64,000 nucleotides of DNA from the NCBI GenBank assembly GCA_010405405.1, contig MU004231.1, forward strand, positions 2,619,860 through 2,683,859, written 5' to 3'. Position numbers and translations under genes: made by a program. The stretch's first letter is position 1. Every line of letters begins with the position of its first letter. Below are positions 4,318-29,529 of this stretch, piece after piece. Below the pieces are notes generated by a model. It had not been told where the DNA came from and ran no database searches. It worked only from the letters and a program-made list of their open reading frames with translations. The stretch is from Microthyrium microscopicum. Its lineage: Eukaryota.

Positions 4318-5136
4318 ATGACGCCCAAAGCCGACGAAGACGCCGCTCTAGCAACCCCAGAATTCTGGGATTCCCGCTATAAAATCGCCGACAACCACGA
4401 AAAGCCCACTCACGAATGGCTATGCACATTCGAGAACCTACACTCCTTCTTTTCACGCAATCTATACCGCGCCAAGGAGTCTGATCAGAATCCACAGATA
4501 CTACATTTGGGATGCGGTGATAGTGTATGTAATACTCTAACATCTGGCATAAATTTTGCTAAGTTATATCTTTAGACGGTCCCACATGATCTTGCCTTGA
4601 TAGGTTATGACAATCAACTATGTCTTGACTTTTCACCTGTTGTTATAGAGTTGATGAAAACTCGCTATCCAGTTTCTGGCATAGAATGGAGATTTGGCGA
4701 TGTGAGAGGTAAGATATTGCTTACGAGCTGAGATTTCTATGGAAAACTGATCTGATAGAGTATAGACATGCACGATGTGCCATCTAGCAGCGTTGATGTT
4801 GCATTCGACAAGAGTACGTTGGACGCGATGGTATATGGAAGTCCATGGAATCCTCCTGATGAGGTCAAGGAAAATGCAGACAAGTACATGGATGAAGTAA
4901 GTTATTTTACAGCTTTAAAGAAAGAGTCTTTACTTAAGCATGAACAGGTATCTAGAGTGTTGAAAGACGATGGTATCTTTCTATTCATCACCTTCAGACA
5001 GCCGCATTTCATGAAACCATTGCTCAAGATTGACACGTTGTGGGATGCCAAGATGGAGACGCTGAAAGGAGATTCCTCTTTTGATTACTTCGGCTTCATC
5101 CTGACGAAGAAAACGGACTGCAAGAAAGAGATCTGA
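4318..5136 (+). CDS. Class I SAM-dependent methyltransferase, EEF1AKMT4/ECE2 (METTL13-N)-like, 4 exons
   Basis: EFWDSRY...HEW, motif I ILHLGCGDS, LDFSPVVIELM, GDVR, VDVAFDKSTLDAM, VSRVLKDDGIFLFITFRQPHF. Introns start at about 4524 (gtatgt), 4709 (gtaaga) and 4897 (gtaagt); stop TGA at 5136. Confidence 0.85.
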
Positions 5137-6498
5137 AGCAAGATAACCTTACGTCCCGGAAGCAAAGGCTAAGTTAAGATTTTGGATCAAGCTTGTATAC
5201 AGGCAATATAAACCCGCCTGCGCCTCAACCCATGCTCATGCCATCGAAATGCCCCCAAGCTAATCTACATTAGCGTTGTGGGGCCAAACGAGAAGATTAT
5301 ATAAACAAAGGTCCATGGACTTTTCCGTCCGGGAGTTTGGAAATCTGATCATGGGTAGCCACGTTAAACTGAGATTGGTCGGACGCGAGCAGCAATTCTA
5401 TTCAGACCTGGAACCGCTTGGGCGAACTTGAAATGGCACACGACACTTGTAAACGTATGCGCCAAGTAGTGTAGATGAACTTGAAATAAGAGTTTTAAGT
5501 TGTTGTAACTTGAGCGGAAGTCAGTCTGGACGCAATTCAAGCACGCCTCGTATGCATGAGCAATTGTGGGCCTTGGGATCCGAAGACCTGGAATACCTCT
5601 GGTCGATCATCTCGGATAAATGCTTGAAGGGAACACATGTACTAATCTCAGGTGTCTAAATAGGTACTGTCTTATGGATTCGAATAGTGACCATGTCAGC
5701 CTCGATGTACTTGCTCGAGCGCAAGATGGCCCAGAACAAGAAGGCACGTTTAGTATGAAAGATGTCCTGATTAACTGTGTAGATCAGTCAGGGACAAAAG
5801 AAAATACCTGTTCGCATATTACCATAGAAGCTGAAGTATCTCAGGGGTTTGGTTCGGAAAGTGATCATTGCCCTTGGAGCACGCGGCTGCTGGGCCCTGA
5901 GATCATTATTTCCCACAATATAATTTATACATCTAATATTACTAGTAAGCTTCTTTGGTCTCGGCGAAATCAAGTTCCTTCCATAGATTAGGCTTTATTT
6001 GGTTCTGGAAGAAGGAAATGTCCAGTAACAGCTGGTCTAGACGACCTTCAGGTTTCTGCGAACATTGTCTGGAATCTGGTCACTACTCAGCCAAACTATA
6101 CAGCACGGGCAAACAAGTTCAATTGTGTCGAAGAATTTCAGGCTGATAACGACCAGAGATAGCATTTCGCACAAGTATCACAATACTTCGAGAATGGCAA
6201 ATTGTCTGAAGCGGAAATTTGGTTGAAATAAGAATAATCTACAGAATGATGTGAAGAACGGCCTCAGACTAACCCAGTGATCAAAATTCAAAGTTTCTTG
6301 GACCAATCTAGGCAATGGAATCGGCCGAATATCTAAAATTGTACCGTTATCTCGGCAGAGCAATATATCGCTTCCGCACTAGGAAACCCGGGGTCAACCT
6401 AGAGTACTTTAACCTTTGTGAAGGCAGCTCGCGGTTCTTAATTTTGCGACTAGTATTGTGTTCTTGGATACTCAGGAAAGAAAGTCGAGGCAAGCAAG

Positions 6499-7976
6499 AT
6501 GCGTGGAATTCTCCTTTTACAGCTCGTGCTGGCTGGGCTGATAGCGGCAGAGCCACAGAAGAAACCTTCAAAGCATGATAATGACAGGAAAAAGAACCCA
6601 AACAAACAGCAACCGAAATTCGACCCCAGGGTCATTCCTATTCCAACTCAAGGTACAGAAGCAGCATTACATGCAAGGTCATGTAATTGTTCTCCAGGCT
6701 TCGTGCCACCAGCATGTGATGGAACAGAAGTGAGCACTCACCATGATACGGGAGGCTGGATATCTGACAGAACCACAGTGCGAATGCAAGAACTCGGCGA
6801 CAATAGCCTGCTGGATGAGCCAAAGAAGTGCCTGCACAGCCAACATAATCGTACGCCCTCATTCCCCCTACGTTCATCCTCCCGATCCTAACATCCGAAG
6901 TCATGTCCAGGTCCTCCAGGCAGCATGGGCGGAGTAAAGTACAACTACTGTGGTCACGGATTCTCAAGCTGTCTCGAGGGAACAACATGCAGAAATCTCG
7001 AAGGACACTGCACAGATGCCACCTGTCTCGGCCTTTGCGTTCCACCTCCTCCAAAATCTCCCACACCCTTGGATCTAGGATCTATGCCGAAGGGTCAGCC
7101 AAGAGGATCACCCAGAGGCCCACTCCCGTCAAGCCCGGCGAGACCCTTCCCATCTGCCGGAGCGTTCCCCAAGAACCCATATGGAGGAACAAGAAGGCCA
7201 AGACCTACGCCTACGCCCACCGTGGAACCACGTCCGGCTGGTCCACCAGTATCACCACCAGGTGGCGCACCAAACGATGCTCCACGACCTCATGTACCTA
7301 CGACCCCAGGCTTTGGCTCCAACGCAGGTAAACCAGATCCTGGAAATCCCAAACCAGAAGCGCCCAAACCAGAGGCGCCTAAGCCGGAAACCAAAAGCGA
7401 AGCGCCAAAGCCAACAATGCGCCCATTCCCCAAGAACACCATCCCAGCCAAAGAAAGCCCAACCCCGAAAGCCGTAGAAGAAGGCGAAGTCGAAGACCCA
7501 AAGAACCCAACCCGCGGCAAAGGCAAGAGCGGTCTCACGCCCAAAGAAAGCAAGCCCAAACCAAAAGCCATTGAAACCGAAGAACCATCCGCCACCTCCG
7601 AACTCACCAAGCCCAGCGCAGCTCACACAGGTCCAGGCTTCATACCTACCACACCGCCCGAGAGTCCCGACCCAGAAGATCCAAAGGCCGCACAACCACT
7701 CGGCGGCTGTCCAAGCCAATTCGTATGTCCAAACAGCTACATGTGCGTGCAAGTGCCAGCAAACGGGAACGGCACAATGGAAGCAGCGTACCGATGTGCG
7801 AGTGATACGGATATTTGTGGAGGATGGAGATATGACAACTGCTTGGAGGATCAGCTTTGTGTGGTGGATCCTCGGAATCACTGGTATGTATCTATTGAAG
7901 CGTTGAGTGAGAATGTGACTAATACGAGTATAGCACCGGACGAGGATGTACGGGCTTGTGTGTATCGTCAATATAA
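6499..7976 (+). CDS. Secreted protein with Cys-rich modules flanking a Pro/Lys/Glu/Thr-rich stalk
   Basis: Signal-peptide-like MRGILLLQLVLAGLIAA. Three introns (gtgagc ~6730, gtacgc ~6851, gtatgt ~7884) join ORFs 6499, 6743 and 6925. The last exon gives CTGRGCTGLCVSSI* with the stop ending at 7976. KPEAP repeats lie in the stalk. Confidence 0.72.
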
Positions 7977-9385
7977 ATACAATTCTTATAGAAACGGCCG
8001 ATATAATATAATCCTAAGTGGAAGGAAGAGGCGAACTATGGTAGCCGACTCTTAGTTTGTAAATTGCATATCAGTTCGCTGTCTGTGGTTGTCTGTAGTG
8101 AATGATAGCATCCTTAATGCAAGCCGGATTATTCTTGGGATTGGAAAAGGTACTCGAGGAATGAGGACGCGTTATGATGGCTGTTGAGCAGCTTCAAGCA
8201 GAGCAGCTGTTGTTACAAATAAGCGCTGTCAAGCAATATGGTAGTACTCACAGAGCGCCTTATGTTGCAGAGATACCAGCTCTAAGGCTTTAAAGCGTTG
8301 GTGTCTACACATAGCATCAGAAGAGGATGAGCATAAATCTTTGATTGAAAGGAAATTAGTTAAGCCGCAACACCATCCTATGCAAATGCAAACACAAAAT
8401 TCTTCAGAAGTCAATAACTGCTGGACCATGAGCAGAATACCGCAAAACATAACGCGCAAAAAACCAGGATGACTGATCAATGTCGAGCACCCATCCAGCC
8501 CCTTCTGCTCCGACAGACAACCCTCGTTATCCCATGGAGTAAATCTTAGGGAATTCAGGTCCAATCCAGCCATCGAGCATTGACGAGTAGTGCTCAATAA
8601 AACACCATTCCGTTGAGAAGGAAAACCAAGGACTCGTAACGAAAGAACACAGAATGTTTGCAATAAGCAACAACGCCGTGCAAATCGTTGTCGACTGTGA
8701 AGTGTCCACGATGAAGAGAAATATCTCAGGAGCCTCGGGAACCCGATTGAGCCCAATCTGGACAGTGTCCAAAACAGCAAACATCATCCATCCACAGTTT
8801 CCCGTGCTGAGATCAGATCGACCAGCCGATTCCACGCTCTTTTCATAGCTCGATGATTGGTACCCTAATCAAGTCCTCTGGTGGACAAAAGATAAGCTTT
8901 AACGGATAAGCCACTGATCGACAGCGAAGGGACGTGGAAACCCGATCATGCAAGATGAAAGACAAGTACGCAAACTCATCGGGCCAGAAGATATGAACAG
9001 GCCGGGTAGGTTTGTTAGTAGATGCTTGATGCTATTCCGAGGCCACTAAGCTGCCAGAAGGTGGTGCAGTGCCGTACATGTCTGTTTGTATGTCTACAGT
9101 ACGGACATGAATTGAGTCGAAACAAAGATTTGCAAAAGGAAGTATAAGAATAGAGGACTTTGACTTTTGGGTATCGATGAAGAATGTGAAACGGGGTATA
9201 AAAGACACGGCCATGGACCGGGGGTATCAAAGCGACGTTCGACCAGAGGAGGTTTGGATAGACTATGGGTACCGGATAAAATGGTAGAGTCCAGGGAAAT
9301 GGAGTTTACTAATGTATCATGACCGTACAATCCAGGAGAGTGTACAATGTGAATAGCTTATTGAATGTTAGTGTAGCCAAGAGGT

Positions 9386-10909
9386 TTATATCTGGCCTTT
9401 GATATCAATTTTTTGAAATGCTGCTTTTTGAGCATGAAGGAAAATGTCCTTTGCTTTCGTGTTCAGCAAGAAGCTGTTGTCTGGCTGCTGAATGAGGTGA
9501 GCTGAAGCACCATTGTCTATGACGAACTGAGCGGCATGATCGTAAGAATCAAAGCCCAATTCCTCAGCAACGAAGGCGACAGGCAAACTCTGGCTATTGT
9601 ATCTAGATCCAGATTAGCAATGAGATTAGAAAAAGGGAAAGGAAACTTACGCTTTGCAAATAGTTGCCAGAGCACGCAGACGCTCTCGATTGATGAACAT
9701 GTCCATGAGCCACGGTCCCATATTCGGACATTCGTGATATAGTTTGAACAACTTGTGATAGTTGCTGAAAGTGATTGCAGACCGCACTTGAAGCGCATGC
9801 TTGATGGCACTTTTCTCCTTGTCTGCTGGAGTCAATTCTGCGAGTAGATTATTCATACTCGATCGATTCGCCGAATAAATCATGTAAAGAATACGATAGG
9901 CCATGAATTCCGAAGGGCGACCGCCCAGTTTCAAGGTGTACAGAGCGCGAAGCTGTGTCTGACACTGGTTATACTCACCCAGATCGCCCTTCTCGAGCGC
10001 AATAAGTGCATGTGTCTCATATACCTTGACGGTGAAAGCGTTCTTGATTCGTTGGACGGTCAAATCTTGGCGGATGGATTTTAGCTGATCACAAACAAAG
10101 TTGTAGTCGCTGTTGAATTTCCACTTCGCCTTGACCATGTCAAGAGCTTGCTCAAGAACGGGTTGAGGACGAACCTCATTTGGTCGAGGTTGGCGGGTCA
10201 AGCGAAAATATCCTTTGACTATTTCGGTGGAGGTTCCGACGACTGGGCCAGTTGAGGCCGTATTGTCGTCGTCGTCTTCTTGACTAGATGAAGATTCGGA
10301 GTGGGCATTCAAATTGAAACGTTTTTGGCGATTTTGCAGTTGTTCCTGGAACTTACTTGATGGTTCAAACACCATGGTCTTTTTCTGCCGTTTTTCCTTG
10401 TTAGTTTTAGCTTTGTTGTTATACATATCGCGATTCTCAAAAGCTCCCTTTCCAGCCTTCTTTCTCCACGGGGGTGTCTCGGGATTGGCTATAGCGTGCT
10501 CCTCGAATGAGCGCTTCCTATTTGGGTTGGGCATGATCGATGAAGGACTAGAATTTGAGTAGATATGGTGAGATGGCGTGGAGTGGTGAGTCCAGGGCTG
10601 TTGTTGGTGTAAGCGTCGTTGCTGAATAGCTTGTTGAGGTAGTGGAAGGGTTGCCCAGTCGATATTGTGGAGATTTCCGCTCTCAGCGGCCGCAGTGATG
10701 GTAGATTTTAGTTCAATGTTCAATTCGTTGCTGTCAATGCCAGGAATTGCGTTCTCTTCGGCAAAGCTTCGTCTTACGTATTCTTTTACTGGTTCAGGGA
10801 AGATTTGACGTGCCTTGGGAGGCGTAGATTCAGAAGGTGTGACGGACATTGGGAGAGCAGTTCTAGGTGACTGCACTGCCGTGAAGGCAGGTGTGAGGGA
10901 GCTGGACAT
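9386..10909 (-). CDS. THP3: SAC3/GANP-family protein, THP3/LENG8-like
   Basis: GPVVGTSTEIVKGYFRLTRQPRPNEVRPQPVLEQAL, CDQLKSIRQDLTVQRIKNAFTVKVYETHALIALEKGDLGEYNQCQTQL. One intron after ATICKA (~9651-9602); C-terminus KIDIKGQI*. Confidence 0.85.
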
Positions 10910-11387
10910 GGTGATGTGGCGCTACAAAGCGAGGTGGAAAAGTTATTCGAGGACAAAGATGGCTACCTTATTTACACGTGAGTAGAGAGAACAAAGAAGA
11001 GAGATAGTCCAGGTTGGCTGGCATATATGATATCGAGAAACCGTTCTCGCGCCCAGGCTGTACAGATGAATTTTGGAGATGGGAGCCAAAGACAGTGGAG
11101 AGAAGAAGTGGTTGGGACTTGAGAGAGAATGCGGTGTGAGGTGAAGTTGAGGTCAACGCGTGGCAACCTAAAGCATTTTTGCCGAACTTTTCCCGATTGG
11201 CTAGTAACCTGACCTCGCATTTCCTATTTGGGCCTCCAATCCAAAATTTGTTTGCTGTTTTAAATATTTTGTCAGTTTGACAGCTGCATGATTTTTACTT
11301 CCATCCCCGTTTGTTCATAGTAACTGATACTTGACTACTCAGGTGGGTTTATACTAATTAGTTACAATCTGCCACCAAGGTTGATAG

Positions 11388-11605
11388 CCAACTGATAGTA
11401 GACAAAATAAATGGCACGGCCCCGCCGACTTCAATGGCTCCCACACGACACGCTCTAGGATTGAGTGCCTTATTTACCACATAGGGCGATCAGACTCGAA
11501 CATTTCATCGAATGAAATAGGAAATACAACACCTCTTGATTAAAAACGTTCGTGGGAGCCAGCGAAGTTGATGGGAGAACGCCAGTTATTTTGTCATCTG
11601 GTTGG
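11388..11605. mobile_element. MITE-like element copy 1 (~215 bp, long imperfect TIRs)
   Basis: Left arm ccaac...gacaaaataaatggcacggccccgccgacttcaatggctcccac pairs imperfectly with right arm gtgggagccagcgaagttgatgggagaacgccagttattttgtc...gttgg. It is similar along its length to copies at 16188 and 16536. Confidence 0.7.
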
Positions 11606-11646
11606 TAGCTTGGGCGCTGAGCCAGTCAGCCACATTTATATGTAGC

Positions 11647-14353
11647 TAGGGCTTCACGTAGGACGCCCTTTTGGAGGTACGACATCTACAACGGTCCTAC
11701 TCGATAATTACGGAGTCCTACTATCTACCTTCTAGTAGGACTGAAGCTGATTGGTGTTTTGATAATATGCTAATAGCGCTAAGCCTAAATAGGCAATATT
11801 TTATAAAATATTTAGCTTTAGATTTATTAGTACAGATTCGTTAATTAGTAGCTAGTACTTAGCTCCCTATATTATTACAATACTAGATATTAAAATACTA
11901 TTAATAAATATAATAGTTTTTAACCTTTACTACTATAACTATTAAAGCTAATAATTATATAAAAATTATATTAGCTTGTTCCTCTTTTCTTGCTCTTTAA
12001 CCTAGTAATTAAAAATTTACACTTTGCCTACTTTTTATAATAGTAACCTACCTTTAGAATTTTTATCTTTTACTATTTGTTACTAAACGATTTCTTTACT
12101 AAAAATGCCTTAATTTATTCCTAGATTATAGCATCGTTGTTAGGCTATCTTATATAACTAGATACGTGTTAAGGGCACTATTCTTACTTATTATTCTTAT
12201 AAATACTATAATAAATCCTACTCTAAGTACCTTAGTTAAATAGAGCTCTATAGTATTCGTAAGGGTTAAATTTAACTTACTAAACGCGTTCTCTAGCTAA
12301 ATCTAATATCTCTACTAATTCTATAGCTAAATCTTAGATAATAGTAGGATCTTTAGTATATAAAGTATATCGTTTAAGAGGGCCTACCGCTAAACACCTT
12401 TAATAAAAGCTACTATCTTACTACCTAGAATAATAAGCGTATCTTAGCTAGTTTAGTAGGAATTGCTTACTATATACTACTAAAGAGGAATTAGATCTTA
12501 CCATTAGTAGAAGAAGTTTATTAGTAAGATCTTCTAAAGCTTGAATTACTACTTAATTAGTAGCCTTATCTTAACTTCTATATAGATAAGAGCTCTAATA
12601 GAGTAGGTCACTATATTACTAACTTTAGCGTCGTTATCCCTAGTTTAGGTGCCTTCTTCCTAGAGAATATTAATCTTTATAGAGCTAACGTAAACGTAGT
12701 ATTCCTAGCTAATCTTATAGTAGAATAGCTTACTTATTAAACCATAGGAGATCTTACTTACGTTAACTCTATTAGCTTTAATACGTATATAGTTATACAT
12801 TTTGCTATAGAATTACTTAAAAAGTATAGCGATTAAGTCCTTAGAAACTACTTTTTTATTCTATATAATTCTTACGGTCTTTAGCTTCTTATAAAGAATA
12901 TTCTGACTAAAATCCCTACTCTAGAAGCTATTCTATTAGATATCTAAGAGGTAGCCGTTTGGTTTAAGATAAGGGACCTCTACTTTGCTTAACTTTAAAC
13001 TATTTAACGCTAAAAGCTAAAGAGGTTTTACGCTCTTAGTTTATTAGTTATTATACGATAGGGGACATAATATAGCCTCATTAATTTGATTCTACGTAGC
13101 TAATTAGCTTTAGAGACCTTTGCTTAAACCACTAGAGTTCTAGGATCCATAGTAGCTACTAGGGCTTTAAATAGCATTATTTTTAATTAAATAAAGAGCC
13201 CTAAATTCTAGGCTAAGGTTTAATTTCTCTCTTATATCCTAGAGCCTATTTATATTACTTAGAAAGCTTTAGAGTCCCTATAATACTATTTAGGTCGTAT
13301 AATTAAAGGCTAGATAGTAGTAAGAGCAGAGTAGGCTAATATTACTACCCTCTACTTTAAGATTAAAGATATAAAGTAGATTTAGGCCTCTCTTCTTTAC
13401 TATCTTAATATACGTTTAAAGCTATAGATTACTAATAATAATTACCTAGTATACGCCTTAAATCTAAATACTATTAGTATTAACCTCTCCCTTGTAGCCT
13501 TTAACGCTACTATCGCTACTATAGAAACTTAACTTACTCCCTCTTCTTTAGCTTTAGATAAGACTAAGAAGGAGGCTAAAAAACTACTTAGTAGCGTTGT
13601 AATCTAATTCTACGCGTTTAGGAATTAATAGGGCTACTTCTTAATATCTAACGTCGCTAGTGGTCCTTAGAAGTATAAAGAATTACTAAATTTCTAGGAA
13701 TTAGTTTGTTTTATAGCGCTAGAGCTTACTAAGATCGCTATTAAGTTGTTTAAAATAATCGCCAACTTTATACTATTAGAAAGAGCATTTTTAGCAGTTA
13801 ATTAGGTTTAGAATCCTTAAAGAACGTCTCTCTCGCAAGACTATTACAATAAGCTCGTTTTTAGCTTTATAAATAGCCTAAAGCTTAATAAACTTAGGCT
13901 AATAATACCGTAGATTTACTATTTAGGAATGTAATATTAACTATAGACGTAGTATATACTAAATATAGTAGAAGAAAACGAACTAGATAATATTTTTTTT
14001 AATTAGTTTACTTCTAAACTTACTATTGCTAGTAATAATAAAGAAGAAGAAGTAATAAATACTATTATTAGTAATTAAGATTAGAATACTTAATAGGCGC
14101 TTTAGAACGTACTAGATTTTGAGACATTCTTATAGTAAGAGACGTAGGAATCTAATATAGAATTATAATGTACGTTTATTTATTTCCTTATATTTAATTT
14201 AACTCTAAAAACTCTATCTCAACATAGATAAAAGCAATAAATTCTACGCGTTCAAAAAGATAGTATTTTTGGCTGTTAGGTAGTGAACGCTGATTAGCTA
14301 AAATCGAGCTAACGATAGATCTATCCTACCACCCTACATTTGGTAAAGCACTA
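11647..14353 (-). mobile_element. RIP-degenerated hAT-like DNA transposon (2707 bp) in the CYP51 promoter
   Basis: Perfect 8-bp TSD TATGTAGC (11639-11646 and 14354-14361). TIRs tagggcttcac / gtaaagcacta match 9/11. The interior is TpA-rich and CpA/TpG-depleted. A weak minus-strand remnant ENAFSKLNLTLT near 12260-12295 resembles the hAT dimerisation motif, so the strand call is tentative. Confidence 0.8.
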
Positions 14354-14470
14354 TATGTAGCCCCCATGATTTGATACATTCATGATAGCGTCTCAAAGCT
14401 TATTGCAAGGTTTTCCTTCTTCCTCAAACTCCCTGAGCTCTCTGGCGAGCTCAGCACCCAGTGGTATACA

Positions 14471-16065
14471 ATGGAGTCATTATACTCAAGCTACAAAGAG
14501 CTATCGCTATTCGCCTCCATTCCACTCACCTTCAGCCTGATCATCCTGTCTGCCATTGTTCAGAATGTGATTCGACAAATATACTTCGCAGAACCTCATC
14601 GGCCACCTGTGGTGTTTCATCTCGTTCCCTTGATAGGAAGCACCATTCAGTATGGAATGGATCCATACAAGTTTTATATCGACTGTCGGGCCAAATACGG
14701 CGATTGCTTCACCTTCATTCTCCTTGGAACACCCACGACAGTATTTCTAGGACCCGCGGGAAACAATTTCATTTTAAATGGCAAACACGCAGACTTGAAT
14801 GCCGAAGACATCTATGGCAAACTTACTACTCCAGTCTTCGGCAAGGGCGTGGTATACGACTGTCCGAACGACAAGCTCATGGATCAGAAGAGATTATGCA
14901 AAGAAGGCTTCACAACAGAAGCTCTGCGTGCCTACATCCCCAAGTTTGTCAGCGAAGTCGAAAACTATATCAAATCCTCGCCTCGATTCAAAGGGAAAAC
15001 GTCGGGCGAATGCAATATCACCGAAGTCATGGGCGAAATCACCATCTATACAGCATCCTCGTCATTGCAAGGCAAAGAAGTCCGCTCCAAGTTCGACGAC
15101 ACCTTTGCTGCTCTATACCGACATCTTGATGATGGGTTTCAGCCCATCAACTTCATCGCGCCGTGGCTTCCACTTCCACAGAACCGCCGTCGTGACCACG
15201 CACAGCGCGTTATGGAGAAGCTGTACGCTGGCATTATTTCTCGACGCCGCGAAGAAGGCAACGTGAACGGAGAGACAGACATGATCTGGAAATTGATGGA
15301 TGCCGAATACAAAGATGGCAGTGTGATGCCAGATGTTCACATTGCTCGCCTCATGATTGCGCTGCTTATGGGCGGACAGCACAATACAGCTGCCAGTGGT
15401 GCGTGGATTCTGTTGAATTTGGCACATCGTCCTGAGCTTCTGGAAGAGTTGTATCAGGAGCAGTTATCGGTGCTTGGTAACCCGCTGCCAGAGTTGACTT
15501 GGGAGAGTTTGCAGCGGCTGACATTAAGTGGGCAAGTGATTAAGGAGACGTTGAGAATACATAGCCCGATTCACTCGATTATGCGGCAGGTAAAAAGTCC
15601 GATGCCAGTTCCAGGAACCAGCTTTGTTGTGCCACCATCACATGTATTGCTTGCGTCACCTGGGGTACAGTCACGCTCTGAAGAGTTCTTTCCACGGCCA
15701 TTGGAATGGGATCCGCATCGGTGGGATAAGATCGACGCTGGAGAGAAGGTGGAGGATGGCTCGGCAAAGGTAGATTATGGTTTTGGCATGGTGTCCAAGG
15801 CAGTGAGCAGTCCGTACCTACCTTTTGGTGCTGGACGGCATCGCTGTGTTGGCGAGGCCTATGCCTACGCTCAACTTGGGGCCATCATCGCGACGTTGGT
15901 CAGGCTGCTCAAACTAGAGCAACGTGATCCAAAGACACCTGTACCCGAAACAGATTACTCGGTAAGTTGCATTCTCTGACCTGTAGAGCGAAGTTCTGAC
16001 ATATATAGTCTATGTTTTCAAGACCCATGAATCCCGCAGTGGTTTGGTGGCGTCTTCGACAGTGA
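14471..16065 (+). CDS. CYP51: Sterol 14-alpha-demethylase family P450 (CYP51), CYP51C-like; 2 exons, 515 aa
   Basis: PPVVFH, YGMDPY, LTTPVFGKGVVYDCPN, I-helix LMGGQHNTA, KETLR, heme motif YLPFGAGRHRCVG. Intron 15962-16008 then SMFSRPMNPAVVWWRLRQ*. The ORF is intact. Confidence 0.95.
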
Positions 16066-16187
16066 TAGATCTTCTCTAATTGCCATACTCCGGCACAAAA
16101 AATGAGGCGCGCATGCCCGTCAGCTGCGAGTTGGCACGAAAGATGGCTGTAGGGCCCGCAGAAAGTTCATGAGCCATTGTTTGAAGT

Positions 16188-16402
16188 CAGTCAACCGATG
16201 GACTTGATAAATGGCGTGCCCCCGTCGGCTTCTTTGGTTCCTATCCACTACAACATGGTACCAATTACTTTTTGCCCATCGAGTATTCAAAAGAGGGTAT
16301 GGATTATTGAATACAATGCCAATTACAGACCATGCTCATTATAAGATGCGGTGGTAGACATCGCATCTGTTAGGGGCACGCCGTTTATTATGTCACCTAG
16401 TC
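16188..16402. mobile_element. MITE-like element copy 2 (most degraded)
   Basis: Starts cagtcaacc. Arms gataaatggcgtgccccc and ggggcacgccgtttatta are reverse complements, and the interior shares ttattgaat-caatg-caa-tacag with copy 3. Confidence 0.62.
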
Positions 16403-16535
16403 GTAAGTCGATCAACATTAGTATCAAGTGTGCAAGAGTGATATGAATTTGACCTTTGAAAGGCTACGAGCTTGCTACAAAGGATAGATCAGAAATGAAC
16501 CGACATGGAGTCAATGAACAGGCTGTCAAGGTGTA

Positions 16536-16754
16536 CACTCAACCGCATGGCAAAATAAATGGCGCGCTCCCATTGATTACGATGGCTACCGTCTCTTACC
16601 CTTGACTATCGAGTACTTTATTTGCCATAGAGGGCGTTTATATTTGGCAGTCTTATTGAATGCAATGGCAAGTACAGCACCTCGTACTTAAGAGGTGATG
16701 GGAGCCATCAGCGTTGATGGGAGCACGCCAGTCGATTTCCCGTGTCGTTGACTA
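16536..16754. mobile_element. MITE-like element copy 3
   Basis: Left arm ta|cactcaac...aaaataaatggcgcgctcccattgattacgatggctacc; right arm gggagccatcagcgttgatgggagcacgcca...gttgacta. It aligns by eye with copy 1. Confidence 0.7.
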
Positions 16755-17234
16755 TCTGCTCTAATTCTTAGTGTGGAAATGAAGATGATTAGGTTAACAT
16801 TGACAAGGTTAGCTTATAGTTCCAGATACATTGCCGGTTGATCGGGCGAGAAGGCATTAATGGATTGTTTGCAAGAGGATTGAACTGATAAACGAACAAT
16901 GTATTTCGATGTCGAAAGGTCCCCGACTTCCAGGAAAGCCAAATATATATCAACCTGTGTCAGTGAACAGATTCGAGATCATATTTTCATCAAAAGGATC
17001 ACTATCGCTCAAAATCTTTGCAGAGCTCTTGCTGGCTCTCATTAGCAAAAGTACCATCGTCCAAATCGGTACAGAATCGCCCCTAACCCTCCTCACTGAA
17101 CAGATCCAAAATCATGTTCTGATCAGGAAAAGCCACATCGCCCAACTCAATGCCTTTGTGCTTCTCTCGTTCCTTTAGTGATCTTGAATGCTTCTACAAT
17201 TCCGTTGGAGGAGTGTTCGTCAAGAACCAAATAA

Positions 17235-17874
17235 GGATGACTTCTTCCACCGCTAATTGTCTACCAAGCACTATCGCTCCATCGAAAGCAATAGTAAAAG
17301 CATTGAGCAGAGAAAGTGATGGGAAGAAAGCCCACCAGACCTAGACTCCATTCTCTCCGCTCAAGGTGGTGCGGTTCATACTAACACGGCTTGGGCCCGG
17401 TCGTCGTGGTCGTTTCTCCCAGTCAAAAAGTCTCCGAGTATGAGAGAGCAGCAAGAAGCCCCATAGTCCGCAACGAATCCATTACAGCTCTATGCGGTCT
17501 TCTCAGTAGTCGAGCTTTGTTGCAAATAAAAGCCCCGGTTGATTTCAGCGTGGCTGGCAAGCCGATATTATGGCCACAGCGCTGCGCTACCAAGTCTTGT
17601 ACGTCTAGATAGTGAGTGAATCGCGACAAGATTGCTGGGCAATTTCGAGAAATGGAGACCAGCTCAGAAGGCAAAGCATATCCCACAAGGATAGACCAAT
17701 ATCATCTTCTTTGTCAGTGAGCCCTTCGATATCCATGGCTACCATTGTCGAACTGTTAAGAACCATTTTGGCCATTTCGAGAGTCGTGATAGGTGTGATG
17801 GATTCCCAACGAGAACCTAAGTTTTTGGTATAATGACCTCCAGGTCTTGGACAACCGCGAGTATTGAGCTTCAT
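17235..17874 (-). pseudogene. Disrupted DEDDh 3'-5' exonuclease (QIP-like), possibly with a C-terminal RRM-like remnant
   Basis: ExoI-like VAMDIEG is in one frame. LVGYALPSEL, YLDVQDLV and ExoIII-like PHRAVMDSLRTMGLL are in another frame, with a frameshift or deletion near 17690. Further stops follow downstream. Confidence 0.5.
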
Positions 17875-18842
17875 TTCGGTGTTGATTGTTCAATATGCTT
17901 TTTCTGGCTAGCGACCAGTTGTAGCAGTCAACTGTAGTCGTTCTTGAGACTTGAGCTTTTGAATGTATAGTCTACCGTAGTGAGAAATATGCGCTTCGAA
18001 GCCACGATATGAAGTTGTGGTTGTATGGTAAAATCGTGATAATCCGATATGTTTGAAGAGAAAAGCTACGTCGAAACCATCTCAAAGGACTTTATAGGAC
18101 TTTTAAGAATTCGTGATGTATCCTGAGATCCTCGTAGAACTGTGCGGAGGCTATAAGTTTAGTATGGGATTTTCAAGATCAAAGATATTAACGGCACCAG
18201 ACTTCTACTTAGCCATAATCGAACCAGAGTGAGGCAAGCCAAAGCTACACGTTGTAAACTACTTCGAGACTACCTGCGATCTCCAGCATAATCGGATAAC
18301 TTCTGGTTACTGCGTCTGTATGCTGAGGTCCTAGTTAGGCGGAAGGTTGAAGCGAAACCAGGCCTCGACTTGAAGCAACCCAGCTTCTATCCGTACCACA
18401 CGCTGCAAACTACAACTCACCAACAAAGCCTAGAAAGCCGAAAGACAGCACAAGTAAGCGACTGTACCATATCATTTAGGAGCAAACGAAAACCTATCCC
18501 ATATCGCTATGTCATCAAACCACAATGATAGCCCAATAAAAAAAACCAGCCTTGCGAACCATAGACCCATCAGTACCACACCCACCAAACGACGCCCGCC
18601 TGATAAAAAAAAGGACCAAGTATTAACAAGCAAAGTTTTCGTTTTGATGTATCTGCGCAAGAACCTTTAAGTGCGGTCCGATTTTGTGAACACAACAAAA
18701 GCACATCAAACAACCCGTCTGTCCCATCGAGTCTTTCCCGATCAGTCGACTAGAACGAGAACTGGAAGCCCTTCATATCCGACTCTATTTTGACCGCAAC
18801 GAAGAGATGCTTTCCCCACAATACTTTATATTCACAGTTCCT

Positions 18843-21683
<2,841 letters not shown>

Positions 21684-24262
21684 GACGGTAGAAGCCAAAA
21701 GATGGTGCAGCGGCCCCGCAGGAGCACCAGGACGAGGAGAGCGGCGATAGCGATCAAGGATGGAGGACGCTCAACAGACGGATGGGAGCAGAGGCTTGTA
21801 AGGAAAAGGGAGAAATAGGAATGAGAAGAACAGGCGAGAGAGAATGCTCAGTTGGGCCAGATTGATGCTTGAGAGAGAAGAGTAGAGTAGAGGTTAGAGG
21901 GCTGACTTGGTGGTAGGTGGTAGGTGGAGGGAAGGATGTTGGTGGTTGAGATGCAGTGGATTTGGTCACAGAAGGTGCAGTGCACACCCCCAGGATGGTT
22001 TGAGCAGCAGCGACCAAACAGCCCAGGAGTGCAGGCAGGAGCCAGTGGTTAGCGGTGCAGAGGGGGCAGTCGCGGCATGGGTAATGGGTGTGGGGACTGG
22101 AGTGGACCAAAAAGGGCAGTGGCCACTGACTACTGAGGCTGTGCAGCTCTTTCCCCAATTTTTCGCCTCTCTCTCATAGGTGCATTTCACGCGCGAAGAA
22201 GTCTCTAGACGACATTTGTAAGGATTCATTTCCCTTTTGAGATGGAAGACCTTGAACATTGAATCTCTGCAATTAATCATATGTACGAATCCTACAATCC
22301 CATGGCGGAAGCAAAACCGCGCTGCTGAGCGACAAAGCGACATCGTTTACACCTCATTTACTACTGTATGTACTCTCTACACCCGTCGGCAATATCAAAA
22401 TGCCAAATCATCATTGATTTCAGTTCAAGCCAGCACTTTACAATTCACTGGCTATCTGTGATCTGCTTGCGTCTGTTGCATTGTTGATATGCAGCAACTA
22501 TATTTAGCTCGCGAATATGATACGAGCAAGGCCAGCAATGTAGCGGCAAAGTACCGTACGGCATCTTGATCGCGAACTCCTTTTGTAACTTTAAGATCAA
22601 ATCTACAAGGCACGACCCAAGTCATATCTAGTAATGGGCTTTAAATGATTTACATGGTTTGCTTTCAATCACACCCGTTATTTCTTTATGCCAAGAGAAG
22701 GATTGATACTATGTAAGCTGGTTGTTTCGGCGCTTTTCTCAACAGAGCAGGAGCTCTGTAGGCTGCGACGTTCGCATCCTGGCTATGCCTTGCAATAGGA
22801 AGCGCGTTTGTTTTGTCGAACCTATCATGTTTGTATAATAATTTATATCAGTTTTGGACAGGCATTGAGTCCTTCTGTTCATTCCGGTAAAGGGTATATC
22901 TTTGTACTGTAGGTACTGATTTAGCTAGTATGCCGTCAGAATGCATGTCTATCCGTGGGTGCAGGTGTCTATCAGAATGCTGCTCTTTGAATGATATCTC
23001 TATAATATTGATTTATACAAGCGCTTTGCACAATTGGTGTCCGGTTTTTTGTTCTGACACACCCACTTTCAGTGCATGGACTTGCTTTGTTAACAACGCA
23101 CTTTAACCTAGTTCAGCAACCCTGAACAGTAACGGCGCTTACCTAACCTTCCAAGTCCTTCCTGTGCCACATAATCGCCTGTGGCTGGAGTCCATTCCAT
23201 TCGGACCATTCCGGCTTTCCGTTTACAACATCGCTACTTCTTACCTCTCTCGAATGAGAAACAAATTTTAATAAGCCACCAGCTTCTCGGGCTGTCAAGC
23301 CTTGCTAGATATAAAGACCTTTCTCCTTAGACGCAACTTAACATGCAGCCATTCCGCAATACCGCTATCTCAGTTTTATTACTCAAGAAGAGCTTGAGTG
23401 TTCATGGTCGCTGATGCTACGATGAAGCTACTCTGTCCAACGATGTACTTCGATGAGCGGCAATGTAACGACCAGAGTGCAACCTTAATTATATACCAAA
23501 GACAGTGTGTGGACAAATCTTGAGCGTACACTTTTACGTCACTGTTTTCATCTAAGGCTGTTTGGCGCGACTACATATCAAGCAGGACTCTGCATCGCCA
23601 TTCGATACTGCCGGAGCTCACTAGCTCCAGCTATCTCCGTCCGGGTTCTCGGTGAAGCTGGGAGTTTTATATACATCTGTATAGTGAGACGAGCGCCCCC
23701 TCACCATGGCTAGACTTATTCACGATTTAGAAAGGCATTGCGCACAGTATCGGATGCCGAAATAGCGCTTATTCGTGAGATCTGTAGCTACGGAACGGAA
23801 TGCAGTGTTGGATGGTCCGCAATGGTCCAATCATCTTGTGGTGTATCGGGGCAACACTGAGCTCTTGATTGAAATGCTCACATACGTTTTTGAGTCAGGC
23901 TACATAGTGTGTTTTCAGTTATATTCTACTACAGTATACTAGAAGTTGTGGGATAATTCCATCTTTCATCGCCTGTACTTCTCCTGTTATGCACCAGGTA
24001 GTTTTCTCCTCCACTGCAAACGCTAATTTCTTAACACTACATAGTAGAGATCGACTTTCTATATCAGTCAAGTGGGATCCGCCTTTTAAGACACAGCATA
24101 AATCACACGGATTGTCGACAAAGAGTTCTTTCTCCACAAAAGGCGTGCATCTCGAAAGCGGCTTCACCAAAACTATCATTGGCGTGGTCTCAAGTCTCAC
24201 TTCTCTTCTTTAACTTGTCTGTTCCTTGTTACCCTCAGGGTATTTGAACGCAAGCCCAAACC

Positions 24263-25246
24263 ATGATTTCTAGCACATGTCTTCGTACGTCAGGAGAACA
24301 AAAAAAGTTAGAATTGCTAACTAATGCCATGTAGCAATAACAGATCCCCAGAACCAATGGAGATATTGTCCTTCTGTGGTCGTCGCTCTCATCTTCGGGA
24401 TCCTCTTTCTTGCAGTGACAATAGCTCATATCGCACAATCCTTACGACCATTCCGTCCTTTCTGCATCGTAATTATCATCGGCGCTCTATGGGAGACGGC
24501 GGCGTTCCTCTTTCGCATTCTATCCGCCAAATCCCCGACAAATAAAGCAGCATATGATGCTTCTTTCCTACTGGTCCTGCTGGCGCCAGTCTGCATAAAT
24601 GCATTCGACTACATGATCGTGTCCAGAATTGTCAAAGCGTTCCTCTTGGATGGCCGTGTTCTTGGTCTGAAAAGATCCATCTTGGGAAAGCTATTCGTCT
24701 GCTCTGACCTTGTGTAAGGTTTCTGTCACGTATCTGAGTACACGTCTAACTTGTTTACGAACTAGTTCGTTTGTCATCCAAATTGCTGGCGGTCTCATGT
24801 CCCTGAGCAAGACTACCAAAACTGCCACACATGGTATACACATCGTGGAAGCAGGATTGATTTTTCAGGGTGCTCTGATAATCTATTTTTTCTGCTTAAC
24901 GATTCGGCTCATCATCATATTGAGACATAGCATGCTTCACAATGCAACATACCGCAGGCTTAGGCTTCAAATTAATGCCGTTCAGTTCTCGCTATTACTC
25001 ATCATGGTAGGGCCCCGGCATTCTATTGCATCAAGTCCTCAGTCGCTAATTCGAGTTCTTGTTTAGTATCGCATCATTTACAGACTTGTAGAATTCACGT
25101 CACCTCCAGGGAGCCCGAGATCGAATTACATAGATGGCCATGAGTGGACTGTTTACGTTTTTGATGCGGGCCCTATGTTTCTCGCCATTATAGTCATGAA
25201 TATTTGGCACCCGGGGAATGCTCTAGTTAAGAACAACGAGATTTGA
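24263..25246 (+). CDS. RTA1-like 7-TM protein (lipid-translocating exporter family)
   Basis: WRYCPSVVVALIFGILF...HIAQ, IIGALWETAAFLFR, LLAPVCINAFDYM, FVCSDL-SFVIQIAGG, RIIYRLVEF, HEWTVYVFDAGPMF...NIWHPG. Three introns; the first exon (24263) is inferred from splice signals. Confidence 0.88.
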
Positions 25247-25620
25247 AGGTCTGTGTTCTTCTTTCCAGGAAATTGAGTCTGGAAGCTGTTCGGAAGCCCT
25301 GTGGGTAGGTGCGACGAGATAGGATGATTGATTCACAAGTCACTATTTCGTTAGTATCAAGGCTATTGTACATTACTGTTTTAGTTATTAGTCTCTAATT
25401 GGTTAAATAGTTTATTATAAGCGTAGCGCTTCGAATAGACTATATATAATAATACTTTGCTCCAGTACTACAGGGGGTTACAAGACTTCTTGCAGAAGAG
25501 AGGTTGAACGACGGCACAAGTCCAGGTACTGCACGCAACTCGAACGAGAGGAGCATCAATCCATTTAGGATGATTAATACCAAGTTCCCTGCCATGGATT
25601 CCCTACCAAACAAGATCTCG

Positions 25621-28125
25621 CTACTGATTTAAGTCCCAAGTAAACCAGTCAAACGTACATTCCAGGGGACGTTTGCTACCGACGCTCCACTTATCAAATG
25701 ATTCAAAGACATTGGATTCAAGATGCTGCGCCATGTCTAAAGCTGGGCCGGGTGCAGACATGTTGCTGCCATCTTCACTTGTCACAAAGCTTTGCGGGCC
25801 ATTGAAATCCAACTGCATCGTGTAGTCCAGGTTCGTGAAATAATTCAAGAGGTCAGAGCCTCGGGAGAAGTCGAAATCAAGATTTGAGGTGGCTCCGCCA
25901 TCGCTTTCCATGCCAAATGAAGTTCCTGGCATCGAGGTCATGATAGCTGGCGCTGATCCGCTTCCTGAGTATCCGCCAATATCACAACTTCCTGCTGTTT
26001 CACCCGAGGTATTCCTAATCATTGTGTTGTGGGTGTACAACTCTGCAAGAGAAGCAAAGACATGAGCAACATCCCCCAGCTTCTTTGCAAGACTGAAATC
26101 CGTCGTGGACATTTCATTGTAATAAGAGACTGTTGAACGCAGAAGTTGGACATCCTGGCGTATATGCTCTGATAACGGTGCGTGGATTATGTTACCAAAG
26201 AGAACGAAGAATGGATTGAACGGATAGTAAAGCAGTTGCCTGATCACGTCAACAGCCATCGAACCTGACCAGGACTCATATACATACCAGATGATACCAT
26301 TGTAAACTTGCTCGGAAGTTGAGACTAACAGCGGGAGGATGTGTAGAGCATTCCGCGCAGCGTCCAAACAGGTGTCCGGGTTCATCTCTTCTTGCCTAGT
26401 GAGAAGCACCTTCAAGTGATAGAACTGGAATGTGAGGGAGTTTAGGCCAATTGTCATTTCTTTTAGCTGACTTTCGTCCATTTCTGTGGAGATCTCGCTA
26501 TCCCGGGCAGCCCGAAGTTTCTTGGATAACTAGGTTAGCAAATATCCCAACTTAGTATGATTACTCACAGGCATTGTTGTCTGATACCATTGCTCCAACT
26601 CGCCCTGGAGAGCATCCTTTTCACTTTCATACGAGGCTTGATTCACAGAGCCCTTGAGGTTCAAAAAGTGAAGTATCTTCCCACTCAATATCGAAAGCAA
26701 TATCGATTGAAGAAAATGGGTTGCACCGAAACTTCGAGCTTGGGCATGGCCACGTCCTTCCTGCCGGTCGACGTGTGGGGTGTATTCAGAAAGCCCATCA
26801 AGGTCTGGAAGTAAAACATTCTGATAGTACGAAGATGGCAACATGGGCGGACGGCCAAAGGCAAGACTGACACCTTTATCAACGGCATACAGCGCCCAAA
26901 ACATGAGAATCTTTCGTGGTTCCTGTGTGGGTAGATGCAGATTGAGAGCCTGCGCCATACGACAAGCATGACTGACAAGTGTCCACGACATACTAGGCGT
27001 TGCGAAACTATCGCCGTGAATGGCAAGGGTAAAAAGAGCTTGCATGTTTATCTCACTGGGCTCCATAAACAAGCCCCCATTGTCTATGGCGATCCATGTA
27101 TTCCAGCGAAGACTCTTCTTTGTAGTAGCGTACTCGGGGGTTTGTAGTGCGCTCGCGGTGGCGGTGAGGCAGTAAAATAAGAGCACCCATCCTCGGGGGA
27201 CATTGGATGGCTCAAAGACGATTTTTCTTGCCAGATCATTAGAAGGCATCAGAAACAGGGGTTGGGATCGTTCCAATATATTCATGAATTCTGTGGGCTA
27301 CAGTCAGTAACAACATAGTGTTGGTTTCGAAATATCAGCTTGGCACACCCTTGATGAGTACCTGGCCTTCTTCCTGTTCTGGAATGATGAACAGTTCATT
27401 GGCCTTACGGGCCCATCTGGCGTCCTCTCTCACTTTGTCGCCTTCGAAGTGAACTGCCAATAGTGCTTGTGAAAGGTCTTGGAGACTGGCAGACCCATCC
27501 AAAACCTCTGGTGGTATTCTGGAACTGACCGAGTCCAAGATACGCGAGGCTTGAGGCAAGGGAGAGAAAGCATCTTGTGTTGGAAGTTCCACGGTACTAT
27601 TGGAATGAAAGGTGGATGTGGTAGTATTCGGGGGCTTCGAGCTGGTCAATTGAGGGCATTCTATTATTTATTCGTCGAGTCAAGGTTAAAAGTTACCTGG
27701 TCAAGTTTTGGCTCCAACAGTCGTGTGAGTGTCTGGACTGCATCTGCTAAAGTACCAATCGTGGTCTCGATCCGACCAAGCCGATCCTCCGTGGAGCTGC
27801 TGGTACTGGCTGAAGGAGCAGAGCTGACGCTATTGCAAGCCGATCTAGACGTAGCTTGTTTCTTACGAGAAGTAGCCATATGCGAGTAGACACAGGGTCC
27901 TGGCCATGGTTTGCAGTTTGTACATTTTGGAAGCTCACGCGTACATCGCAGCTTCCGTTGCCTGCAGGAGTCGCACTTTTGCAGGGTCAGTTCAAAGTTG
28001 GGCTCAATGCCAAATCACTAGGCCTGGGTACTACAGTAGAGAGGGTGGGGACGAACTGCGAATTTGGCAACCGCCACATTTTCCGACGCCGTGCCAGATG
28101 GTTCTAGGTATTCGGAGCTGCTCAT
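25621..28125 (-). CDS. Zn(II)2Cys6 transcription factor with fungal-specific TF middle domain
   Basis: CDSCRQRKLRCTRELPKCTNCKPWPGPCVY at ~27887-27978. SWTLVSHACRMAQALNLH and MFWALYAVDKGVSLAFGRP fit Fungal_trans. C-terminus KRPLECTFDWFTWD. Multi-exon. Confidence 0.92.
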
Positions 28126-29529
28126 ATTTGGGAATTTGGGAATTTGGGAACCTTCGCGCGTTCTTCGAAAACAAAATCGAGTTGTGTAAGCTAAGATGTC
28201 ATTATCGAAGGGCATGTACTAGGAACCAGGGAACACTTCAAAGAAGAGAATGGCATAGTTAAATATTGACAGAAGGATCTTGATCGCTAGCATCCTGATC
28301 CGCGCTAATCCTAAAGCGCGCGATATCTTGGAAACACCAAAATCAACATATTTGATCTTAACCCCTTCCATGCTTTCAAGTTCCTTTGCTCGACACCTTG
28401 CGAATCAGTATTAACTCCTTTTTAATCCTCTTTCCTGTATTTAGGAATTACCCCTTTTCAAAGGGTTTAATTAGGTATAAACAGGGTAGTTTTAGTAGTT
28501 ATAGATTAGACAGAATTATCATCCTATTTTTACCGTTTTATTAGTCAAATATAGATAGGAGCACGATAAATCTCTACTCCGTAAAGGCCTAGAAGAACTA
28601 GGCCTAATAATTAGCTAAAGTAAAAAAAAACGAAAAGTAAAAATTAATAACTACGGGAATTAACCTAATAACCTTTAGAATTAGTAGAAATTAAACTTAT
28701 ATTAATACTTAGTTAAAGTACTACTTTCCTATTAAGCTATAATTCTAATTTCTTTAGGGTTAGGGTTATTATATTTTTATATATATACCTATACTATATA
28801 TACTATATTTCTTTTTTCTAGGTTTTTAGCTATACCTTTATAGTATCTAATTTTCTACTAGTAATAAGCTAACTTTATATAGTTTAAAAAGTATAGAGTA
28901 ACTACTATAATAAAAGCTATTATTTATTTTAGCTATATTATAAGTAATTAATATATAAAGTAATAATATATAAATTTTATTTAATATTATTATTAAACTA
29001 GGTAAGTTTAGTAAAACCCTTTATTATTTCTTATTAAGCTAGATAAAATGTTTACTATTTAGCTATCTAAACCTATTATTACTATTAATTAATTATAATT
29101 AAGTTCTTTACGCTATTATTTAAAGTTAAAATTAGTAAAACTTAGTCTATATATATATTTATATAGGAAGAAGTAAGAGTATTAGCATAAGAATTTATAG
29201 CTACTAAATTAGCTAGTAAACTATAATATCTTATAAACTAACTATTATAAGTATAGACCTTTAAAATTAAAGATATTAGCTTTATAACTCTTTTCTAAAA
29301 GTAATAGATAAGTACTAAGAACTTACTATAATATTACTTAAGAATAGATTATAAATTATTAATATAACTATAATAAATAATAACTTAATATATTAGTAGC
29401 GTAAAAGAATATCTAAAGGGTAGATTAAGAAATAGTAGCTATTATAAAACTAGATAACATTAGTAAACGTATTAAGAAAGAATGTTCTTAGAAAATTTAT
29501 AACATTAAACTATAGAAGGCCTTAGCTAC

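Follow-up and report, generated by a model that had tools for sequence, protein, structure and literature searches.

Azole drugs and fungicides act on CYP51, the 14-alpha sterol demethylase, and intrinsic sensitivity is shaped by additional paralogs of the enzyme. One such paralog, CYP51C, has long been treated as a marker of Fusarium and is still used for Fusarium-specific polymerase chain reaction and RNA-silencing constructs. CYP51C is placed only in Fusarium in the available part of Hawkins (2014), and the available parts of a preprint on Cercospora beticola (Spanner et al. 2020) and of a paper in G3 (Celia-Sanchez et al. 2022; hereafter G3 2022) add C-group genes from about ten further genera, one Dothideomycete included. 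In the accessible text of the 2020-2022 papers, genes of Cercospora, Chaetothyriales and Orbiliomycetes belong to this wider CYP51C group. The present analysis concerns a CYP51C gene at positions 14471..16065 of a 64,000-nucleotide stretch of DNA from the fungus Microthyrium microscopicum (contig MU004231.1 of assembly GCA_010405405.1, forward-strand positions 2,619,860 to 2,683,859), here called the window. A preliminary description of the window had called CYP51C usually Fusarium-specific, which is outdated, the wider C group having already been published in 2020-2022.

Some consequences of losing such genes have been described. According to Fan et al. (2013), as quoted in other papers, Fusarium graminearum CYP51C failed to complement yeast ERG11, its deletion altered sterols, and the gene was needed for full virulence. 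The CYP51-like gene of C. beticola is given in the accessible part of the preprint as intron-free and as partly deleted in seven of 190 isolates, with no link to fungicide sensitivity (Spanner et al. 2020).

The Microthyrium gene has two exons and a product of 515 amino acids (aa), and its start and end coincide with the limits given in the preliminary description. The ATG of MESLY at 14471 sits in a stop-to-stop frame at 14375..15979 on the plus strand. Exon 1 (14471..15961, plus strand) comprises 497 codons, Met1 to Ser497, translated without a stop; the protein matches the Pfam family p450 (PF00067, E 3e-62) and is 100% identical to the 515-aa NCBI protein KAF2673403.1, 'cytochrome P450' of Microthyrium microscopicum. 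A phase 0 intron of 47 nucleotides (nt) with GT..AG ends (15962..16008, plus strand) follows ...TDYS and is skipped in an RNA-type contig of a public sequencing run, X1. Exon 2 (16009..16065, plus strand) supplies 18 codons and a TGA, with the translation SMFSRPMNPAVVWWRLRQ before the stop.

The kind of run X1 was guessed, no run being recorded as RNA, and its contigs were compared with positions 9000..22000 of the window. Sampled words of the CYP51C gene were 94% present in the run. The contigs carry 10 canonical splice joints with introns removed, distributed across three genes (SAC3-family, CYP51 and Rsp5) and including that of the CYP51C intron, and X1 therefore contains spliced RNA. A contig of 2024 nt with 0 mismatches, from which 15961/2..16008 is removed, defines a minimum transcript of 14333..16403 (plus strand), with a 5' untranslated region (UTR) of at least 138 nt and a 3' UTR of at least 338 nt. 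The parts of the window without X1 contig cover (11604..14207 and 17246..18547) were not counted as evidence. The gene is intact, transcribed and spliced as modeled; the full frame, the catalytic motifs and the spliced X1 transcript all bear out the earlier description of it as intact. A possible second intron in the 3' UTR (16403-16462, 60 nt, GT..AG) appears at a single contig joint whose shorter side is 29 letters.

The motifs that had first drawn attention to the gene (MESLY, ILNGKHADLNAED, YRHLDDGFQPINF, LMGGQHNTA, LLNLAH, RSEEFFPRPLEWDPHRWDKI and SMFSRPMNPA) are all present in the translation. CYP51 enzymes are recognized by the B'-C loop signature Yxx(L/F)xTPxFGxxVxYD and by GQH in the I-helix. 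The Microthyrium protein has the B'-C loop YGKLTTPVFGKGVVYD from residue 115 (YGKLTTPVFG at 115) and GGQH at 301, and in the alignment both coincide with the corresponding parts of solved fungal CYP51s. The heme-thiolate loop FGAGRHRCVG is found at 452, ETLR (EXXR) at 359 and PHRW (PxRW) at 415, and Y115, F123, Y129, K140 and H304 correspond to residues conserved in the solved CYP51 enzymes. Under P450 nomenclature, as stated in the available part of the C. beticola preprint, more than 40% identity places proteins in the same family (Spanner et al. 2020), a threshold passed at 55.4% identity to the CYP51B of the same host and 75.1% to a Fusarium CYP51C. The closest solved structure is A. fumigatus CYP51B (5FRB, E 1.3e-188), with residues 44-497 aligned without large gaps. 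R141 was considered as the counterpart of Candida K143 and was dropped, as the alignment puts the equivalent conserved lysine at K140 and R141 is the next residue.

The relationships of the protein were sought in a database search that returned 2735 proteins at E <= 1e-50, the best 120 of which were examined. After the protein itself, these were led by a Calonectria 'lanosterol 14 alpha-demethylase C' (74%) and by Fusarium/Neocosmospora proteins (68-75%), several of them named cyp51c. Next came Dactylonectria, Cylindrodendrum, Xylariales sp. PMI_506 (73%), two proteins of Thozetella sp. PMI_491 (72% and 69%), Plectosphaerella (68%) and Sarocladium (64%), and further down Chaetothyriales proteins (61-64%) and CYP51B proteins (56-62%). 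A FastTree phylogeny of 150 rows was built from the retrieved proteins of at least 450 aa and six outgroups, with three fragments excluded. Its ingroup divides into a CYP51B-like side of 91 rows (support 97) and a C group of 53 rows (100), and the latter into three subclades, each supported at 100: Orbiliomycetes with Tothia (6 rows), Chaetothyriales with Cercospora and Pseudocercospora (27 rows), and a narrow clade of 20 rows, in which Microthyrium stands with 18 Sordariomycete rows and one unnamed row.

A second phylogeny was inferred with IQ-TREE under LG+C20 with posterior mean site frequencies (PMSF), with support given as ultrafast bootstrap/Shimodaira-Hasegawa-like approximate likelihood ratio test (SH-aLRT). 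It comprised 56 hand-picked rows: 16 of the 20 narrow-clade rows (four near-identical Nectriaceae were dropped), the fragment P0067 of 386 aa, selected rows of the other clades, 14 CYP51B proteins and 4 outgroups; a search of 50% representatives had yielded outgroups and fragments only, with no CYP51A reference. The C group was again recovered apart from the CYP51B rows (100/100), and within it a narrow clade of 17 rows (100/100), whose stem measures 0.30 changes per site. Its 14 other named members are all Sordariomycetes, namely Nectriaceae, Xylariales sp., Thozetella (two copies), Plectosphaerella and Sarocladium.

The residues of the protein agree with this placement. An alignment column was taken as diagnostic of the narrow clade where 12 or all 13 of the named Sordariomycete C proteins had one residue that occurred in none of 21 CYP51B proteins, and there were 23 such columns. 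The Microthyrium protein carries the diagnostic residue in 21 of the 23, including all eight of those whose residue is found in neither of the other C subclades, and has none of the 14 residues diagnostic of CYP51B. It is scarcely credible that these features mark an ordinary demethylase, a CYP51A or CYP51B in which Fusarium-like motifs arose by convergence: such an enzyme would account for the intact catalytic CYP51 motifs and for a CYP51B as the best solved structure, and the trees are without CYP51A references, but the CYP51B-diagnostic residues are missing, the C group is split from the CYP51B rows at 100/100, a bona fide CYP51B exists in the host, and identity to that protein is 55.4% as against 75% to proteins named CYP51C. 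Moreover, Cyp51C is the name that the available part of Supplementary Table 2 of G3 2022 gives to proteins from each of the three subclades (A. oligospora, Cladophialophora, Exophiala, Fonsecaea, Cyphellophora, C. beticola, Fusarium and Nectria). By its tree position and residues the Microthyrium gene is almost certainly a CYP51C in the narrow, Fusarium/Nectriaceae sense. Of the maximum-likelihood phylogeny proposed in the preliminary description, the comparison with CYP51B and CYP51C has been run, and the protein stays outside CYP51B and inside the Fusarium CYP51C clade, in keeping with its first recognition as a Fusarium-type CYP51C; CYP51A is set aside indirectly, through the protein names and the published grouping.

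The position of the 3' intron was also compared. An intron after ...DYS and before SMFSRPMNPA is present in all four genomic narrow-clade sequences, a small sample comprising the window and the metagenome loci L001, L004 and L005, and is absent from L002, the sole non-C CYP51 locus examined. L005 shares 94% identity with a Fusarium CYP51C, so that the site is common to Fusarium-type loci, as judged from this Fusarium-like locus and not from a Fusarium reference genome. L001, the nearest metagenomic relative, is 77-80% identical to the Microthyrium copy and has an extra intron after MDQKR (L001 335-391), whereas the Microthyrium gene has none there; intron content therefore varies within the narrow clade.

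Three further features of the C group were observed. The narrow-clade gene tree differs from taxonomy in that Sarocladium and Plectosphaerella stand together (99/98) and away from Nectriaceae, the orders being Hypocreales for Sarocladium and Nectriaceae and Glomerellales for Plectosphaerella; the clade is patchy within Sordariomycetes. Two narrow-clade copies are present in Thozetella sp. PMI_491. A C-group protein of Fonsecaea monophora (P0029, 825 aa) is annotated as fused with acetyltransferase domains (PF13508 and PF00583). The accessible part of G3 2022 mentions two Cyp51C-acetyltransferase models and the use of synteny to check for annotation mergers.

The host had been described as outside Fusarium and Dothideomycete-like, and NCBI taxonomy places M. 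microscopicum in Dothideomycetes, Microthyriales. The fungus is a saprobe of leaf litter. KAF2673403.1 lies on a M. microscopicum contig given as 4,495,203 bases. The separate CYP51B that had been proposed as a check is present on another contig (146 kb) as KAF2663098.1, a 527-aa '14-alpha sterol demethylase Cyp51B' of Microthyrium microscopicum, which was retrieved by a protein database search with the Trichodelitschia CYP51B that also returned those of Tothia and Venturia. In a quick tree of 58 rows it joins Tothia and Venturia (SH-aLRT 96) and then Trichodelitschia (98), a placement that agrees with taxonomy, as expected. The host CYP51B is only 63.0-68.8% identical to the CYP51B of eight other Dothideomycetes.

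It is very improbable that the gene entered the assembly as Sordariomycete contamination or through a chimeric join. Such an error would explain why the nearest relatives belong to another class, and the sole public run found is RNA by its spliced contigs; against this, the gene is part of a continuous window between Bem1, SAC3-family and Rsp5 genes on a contig given as 4.5 Mb, and CYP51C and both neighbors are found at 100% identity in one run, X1. The product shares no more than 75% identity with any named protein of Sordariomycetes, so the gene is no recent contaminant, and its GC content at third codon positions (GC3) is host-like.

The origin of the gene was considered from identities and tree topology. 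The Microthyrium copy has a mean identity of 73.2% to eight Nectriaceae copies (range 69.3-75.1) and of 71.7% to 13 Sordariomycete copies (63.4-75.1), whereas C-group proteins of Chaetothyriales type reach only 58.6-64.0% and those of Orbiliomycetes 59.2-62.0%. Other comparisons between classes in the C group give 54-65% (means 58.8-60.9), and Nectriaceae and other Sordariomycete orders in the narrow clade are 61-74% identical to each other. These identities, with the common long stem, imply that the Microthyrium copy falls within Sordariomycete diversity; in the IQ-TREE phylogeny it lies within a 14-row subclade (89/85) without Sarocladium and Plectosphaerella. Among the best 120 of the 2735 proteins, no Dothideomycete besides Microthyrium exceeded 63% identity. 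The four Dothideomycete C-group rows (Microthyrium, Tothia, Cercospora and Pseudocercospora) are found in three different 100/100 clades, and forcing them to be monophyletic was rejected, at a cost of 408.8 units of log-likelihood (lnL; p = 1.5e-8 in the approximately unbiased (AU) test). Orthologs following the species tree across the host's class, which the preliminary description had named as the contrary outcome, are therefore not what was found. Presence of the C group in Dothideomycetes is patchy, with the housekeeping CYP51B tracking taxonomy (Tothia, Venturia). The 3' intron site common to the narrow-clade loci and the low identity of the host CYP51B to its counterparts in other Dothideomycetes (63.0-68.8%) weigh on the side of transfer as well. 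The best reading of these observations is that the CYP51C of the Microthyrium lineage is probably of horizontal origin, from a Sordariomycete.

Several results weigh against a horizontal origin. Placing Microthyrium outside the 14 named Sordariomycetes, sister to all of their copies, costs only 9.73 lnL and was not rejected (p-AU 0.279), and its position beside Xylariales and Thozetella is weak in the IQ-TREE phylogeny (82/78) and collapses to a basal polytomy in the quick tree. The trees are without named CYP51A and without Sordariomycete CYP51B. Crown-to-tip depth in the narrow clade is 0.23-0.73, against approximately 0.27-0.6 for CYP51B since the class radiation (both as sums of branch lengths); the depths are of the same order and, on distance alone, would also suit an old origin. 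The GC3 of the gene is 0.541 against 0.407-0.525 in seven neighboring coding stretches, which puts it at the upper edge and not anomalous, so that composition is host-like. Finally, the vicinity of CYP51C yielded no mobile-element gene, such as one for a transposase or a reverse transcriptase.

The tree test, the depths and the base composition would also suit an ancient paralog kept vertically, in which narrow CYP51C predates the split between Dothideomycetes and Sordariomycetes and Microthyrium is a rare retainer; in the available parts of the literature CYP51C has been published as an old Pezizomycotina paralog with many losses. Vertical retention entails that the gene was lost from almost every Dothideomycete, from the whole sample of Leotiomycetes and Lecanoromycetes and from the majority of Sordariomycetes. 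It also needs three separate ancient C lineages, given the distribution of Tothia, Cercospora/Pseudocercospora and Microthyrium among three clades whose monophyly was rejected, and yet no species among the 53 C-group rows has two of the types, and outside these cases no type is found in more than one class. Microthyrium shares the whole 0.30 stem with Sordariomycetes, though Dothideomycetes are not their sister class, its mean identity to Sordariomycete copies is far above the values found between classes in the C group, and a second Dothideomycete of comparable identity is missing from the matches examined. Vertical retention is consequently considered unlikely, if a good deal less so than contamination or convergence.

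Horizontal transfer, which the preliminary description had suggested alongside a wider distribution of CYP51C, is thus the better explanation but is not demonstrated, the p-AU of 0.279 and the unexceptional GC3 standing in its way. The transfer, if real, was old, because the named donor candidates are at most 75% identical and the composition is host-like. The Microthyrium lineage would have acquired CYP51C from a Sordariomycete at about the time when the Sordariomycete orders diverged, and the acquired gene would later have taken on the base composition of its host.

The other Dothideomycete members of the C group were also placed. A C-group CYP51 of Tothia fuscella (P0098, KAF2437055.1) shares 77.1-78.3% identity with five Orbiliomycete proteins but only 58% with the Microthyrium copy, and falls in a 100/100 clade with Orbiliomycetes; Tothia also has a normal CYP51B (P0305). 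As this similarity reaches across the deepest Pezizomycotina split, it suggests another inter-class transfer. The proteins of C. beticola (P0076) and Pseudocercospora fuligena (P0105) lie inside the Chaetothyriales clade, with an unnamed protein from JGI (98/90) in an 11-row clade (96/87). The C. beticola gene is already published, and a Chaetothyriales origin is not raised in the available part of that preprint (Spanner et al. 2020).

A more general scheme can be put forward only tentatively, and it is somewhat more likely to be wrong than right. Accessory CYP51 genes would move between fungal classes, and at least three separate gains of a C-group copy would have taken place in Dothideomycetes, with a Sordariomycete as the source for Microthyrium, an Orbiliomycete-like fungus for Tothia and Chaetothyriales for Cercospora/Pseudocercospora. 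The Microthyrium copy may have come in a repeat-bracketed insertion that is now degraded by repeat-induced point mutation (RIP).

The surroundings of the gene were examined for composition and repeats. CYP51C lies within a 7.9-kb interval between two housekeeping genes. The upstream neighbor is a SAC3/GANP-family (THP3-like) gene with its main exon at 9647..10921 on the minus strand (Pfam PF03399, E 2.3e-20), and the downstream neighbor is an Rsp5-type HECT/WW ubiquitin ligase of several exons at 18785..21170, also on the minus strand (Pfam HECT, E 7.6e-42; WW, E 1.5e-36); each is covered by a spliced X1 contig. Further out in the window are Bem1, an RTA1-like gene and a Zn2Cys6 factor. The two Bem1 motifs quoted previously were found in minus-strand frames at 350..1273 and 3..467, and the identity of the Bem1 fragment was confirmed in the ESM Atlas, at phylum level only and with no class.

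Directly upstream of CYP51C, at 11600..14300, is a 2.6-kb AT-rich block recognized by composition, with a RIP-like dinucleotide bias. Within it, positions 12001..14000 have a GC content of 0.28-0.30, a TpA/ApT ratio of 1.86-2.0 and a (CpA+TpG)/(ApC+GpT) ratio of 0.20-0.23; inside the CYP51C gene these ratios are 0.38-0.71 and 1.26-1.56, respectively. A blastn comparison of the block (11.7-14.4 kb) with the large AT-rich region beyond 28.5 kb showed no relation but 23 nt. That region (28500-64000, 35.5 kb) has a GC content of 0.17-0.28, RIP-type bias and one open reading frame of at least 90 aa. By its sequence it is best described as a putative AT-rich isochore of degraded repeats beside a gene-dense region.

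A direct repeat of approximately 350 bp brackets the AT-rich block together with CYP51C. Its upstream copy (11330..11700, plus strand) belongs to repeat families D1 and D2 and matches 16551..16732 by blastn (E 1e-12). Two tandem copies (16130..16900, plus strand), found by repeat search and alignment, lie in the 3' UTR and downstream of the gene, where X1 contigs cover 16008..16403 and 16463..16846. Identity among the three copies is 69-75% (69% mean column identity in the alignment). Loose ends of other X1 contigs lie at 11547..11597, and further, transcribed copies of the repeat elsewhere in the genome are suggested. A tRNA scan of 1..29000 and an Rfam scan of 10.9-18.8 kb each gave 0 hits, and the repeat is therefore not recognizable as tRNA-derived or as a known RNA element. 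The earlier statement that the gene is surrounded by mobile DNA holds as regards RIP-like composition and a short repeat family, but not as regards transposon genes, none of which was identified; 'mobile DNA' is therefore a deduction from composition.

The protein is expected to be a heme-thiolate monooxygenase anchored in the membrane, with a 14-alpha-methyl sterol or a close relative as substrate, and its role would be auxiliary to CYP51B and not that of the main ergosterol demethylase. It is probably dispensable, as reports on CYP51C in F. graminearum and on the CYP51-like gene of C. beticola would suggest. An objection to such a role is that one paper, in its available part, argues that the lack of demethylase activity in Fusarium CYP51C is unproven. 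Clade-wide changes are found next to the catalytic I-helix His, where CYP51C has GGQHNTA and CYP51B has AGQHSSS, and at R141/L142. It may be speculated from the alignment that these changes mark an altered substrate or proton path. Taken as a whole, the observations are best explained by an accessory narrow-sense CYP51C in a Dothideomycete host, horizontally acquired and auxiliary to CYP51B, and this combined account is rather likely to be correct.

What is new here is a narrow-clade CYP51C in a second class, Dothideomycetes, for which a horizontal origin is plausible but unproven. A literature text search found no paper naming both 'Microthyrium microscopicum' and 'CYP51', and Microthyrium and Tothia are unmentioned in the supplementary text files of G3 2022, in their available part. 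In the literature on CYP51C and horizontal gene transfer, judged partly by titles, no claim of CYP51C transfer was found. With a 75%-identical, expressed ortholog in a harmless Dothideomycete of leaf litter, the hosts of the narrow clade now belong to two classes, and Microthyrium offers a non-pathogenic fungus for the study of what CYP51C does, which virulence alone cannot explain. Considered with Tothia and Cercospora, the Microthyrium copy suggests that CYP51C paralogs spread horizontally. If true, such spread bears on target-site diversity and on the off-target range of sequence-based CYP51C controls.

Among described systems, the CYP51B enzymes, which are the housekeeping eburicol/lanosterol 14-alpha-demethylases of Pezizomycotina (A. 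fumigatus structures 5FRB, 4UYL and 6CR2), have the fold family and the catalytic motifs in common with Microthyrium CYP51C and differ from it in belonging to a separate clade, in the 14 B-diagnostic residues and in an identity that, for the host's own CYP51B, stands at 55.4%. The CYP51C genes in the wide sense (C. beticola CYP51-like, Chaetothyriales and Orbiliomycetes) are closer: they share a 100/100 super-clade with the Microthyrium copy, are likewise accessory beside CYP51B, and have nine of the 23 diagnostic residues (e.g., R141, L142, R217, D221 and N305) in all six Orbiliomycete-type and at least 12 of 14 Chaetothyriales-type rows. They belong, however, to other subclades and are only 58-64% identical to the Microthyrium copy, and the C. 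beticola gene is without introns whereas the Microthyrium gene has the narrow-clade 3' intron. The closest system is the CYP51C of Fusarium and other Nectriaceae (cyp51c of F. piperis, F. torreyae and F. falciforme, and 'Lanosterol 14 alpha-demethylase C' of Calonectria pseudonaviculata), which is 72.5-75.1% identical over its full length and has in common with the Microthyrium gene one 100/100 clade, the I-helix GGQHNTA, the 3' intron site and a separate CYP51B alongside. It differs in having W where Microthyrium has F385 and A where Microthyrium has T489. Its hosts are Hypocrealean plant pathogens, whereas the Microthyrium host is a saprobic Dothideomycete, to which a role in virulence as such does not apply.

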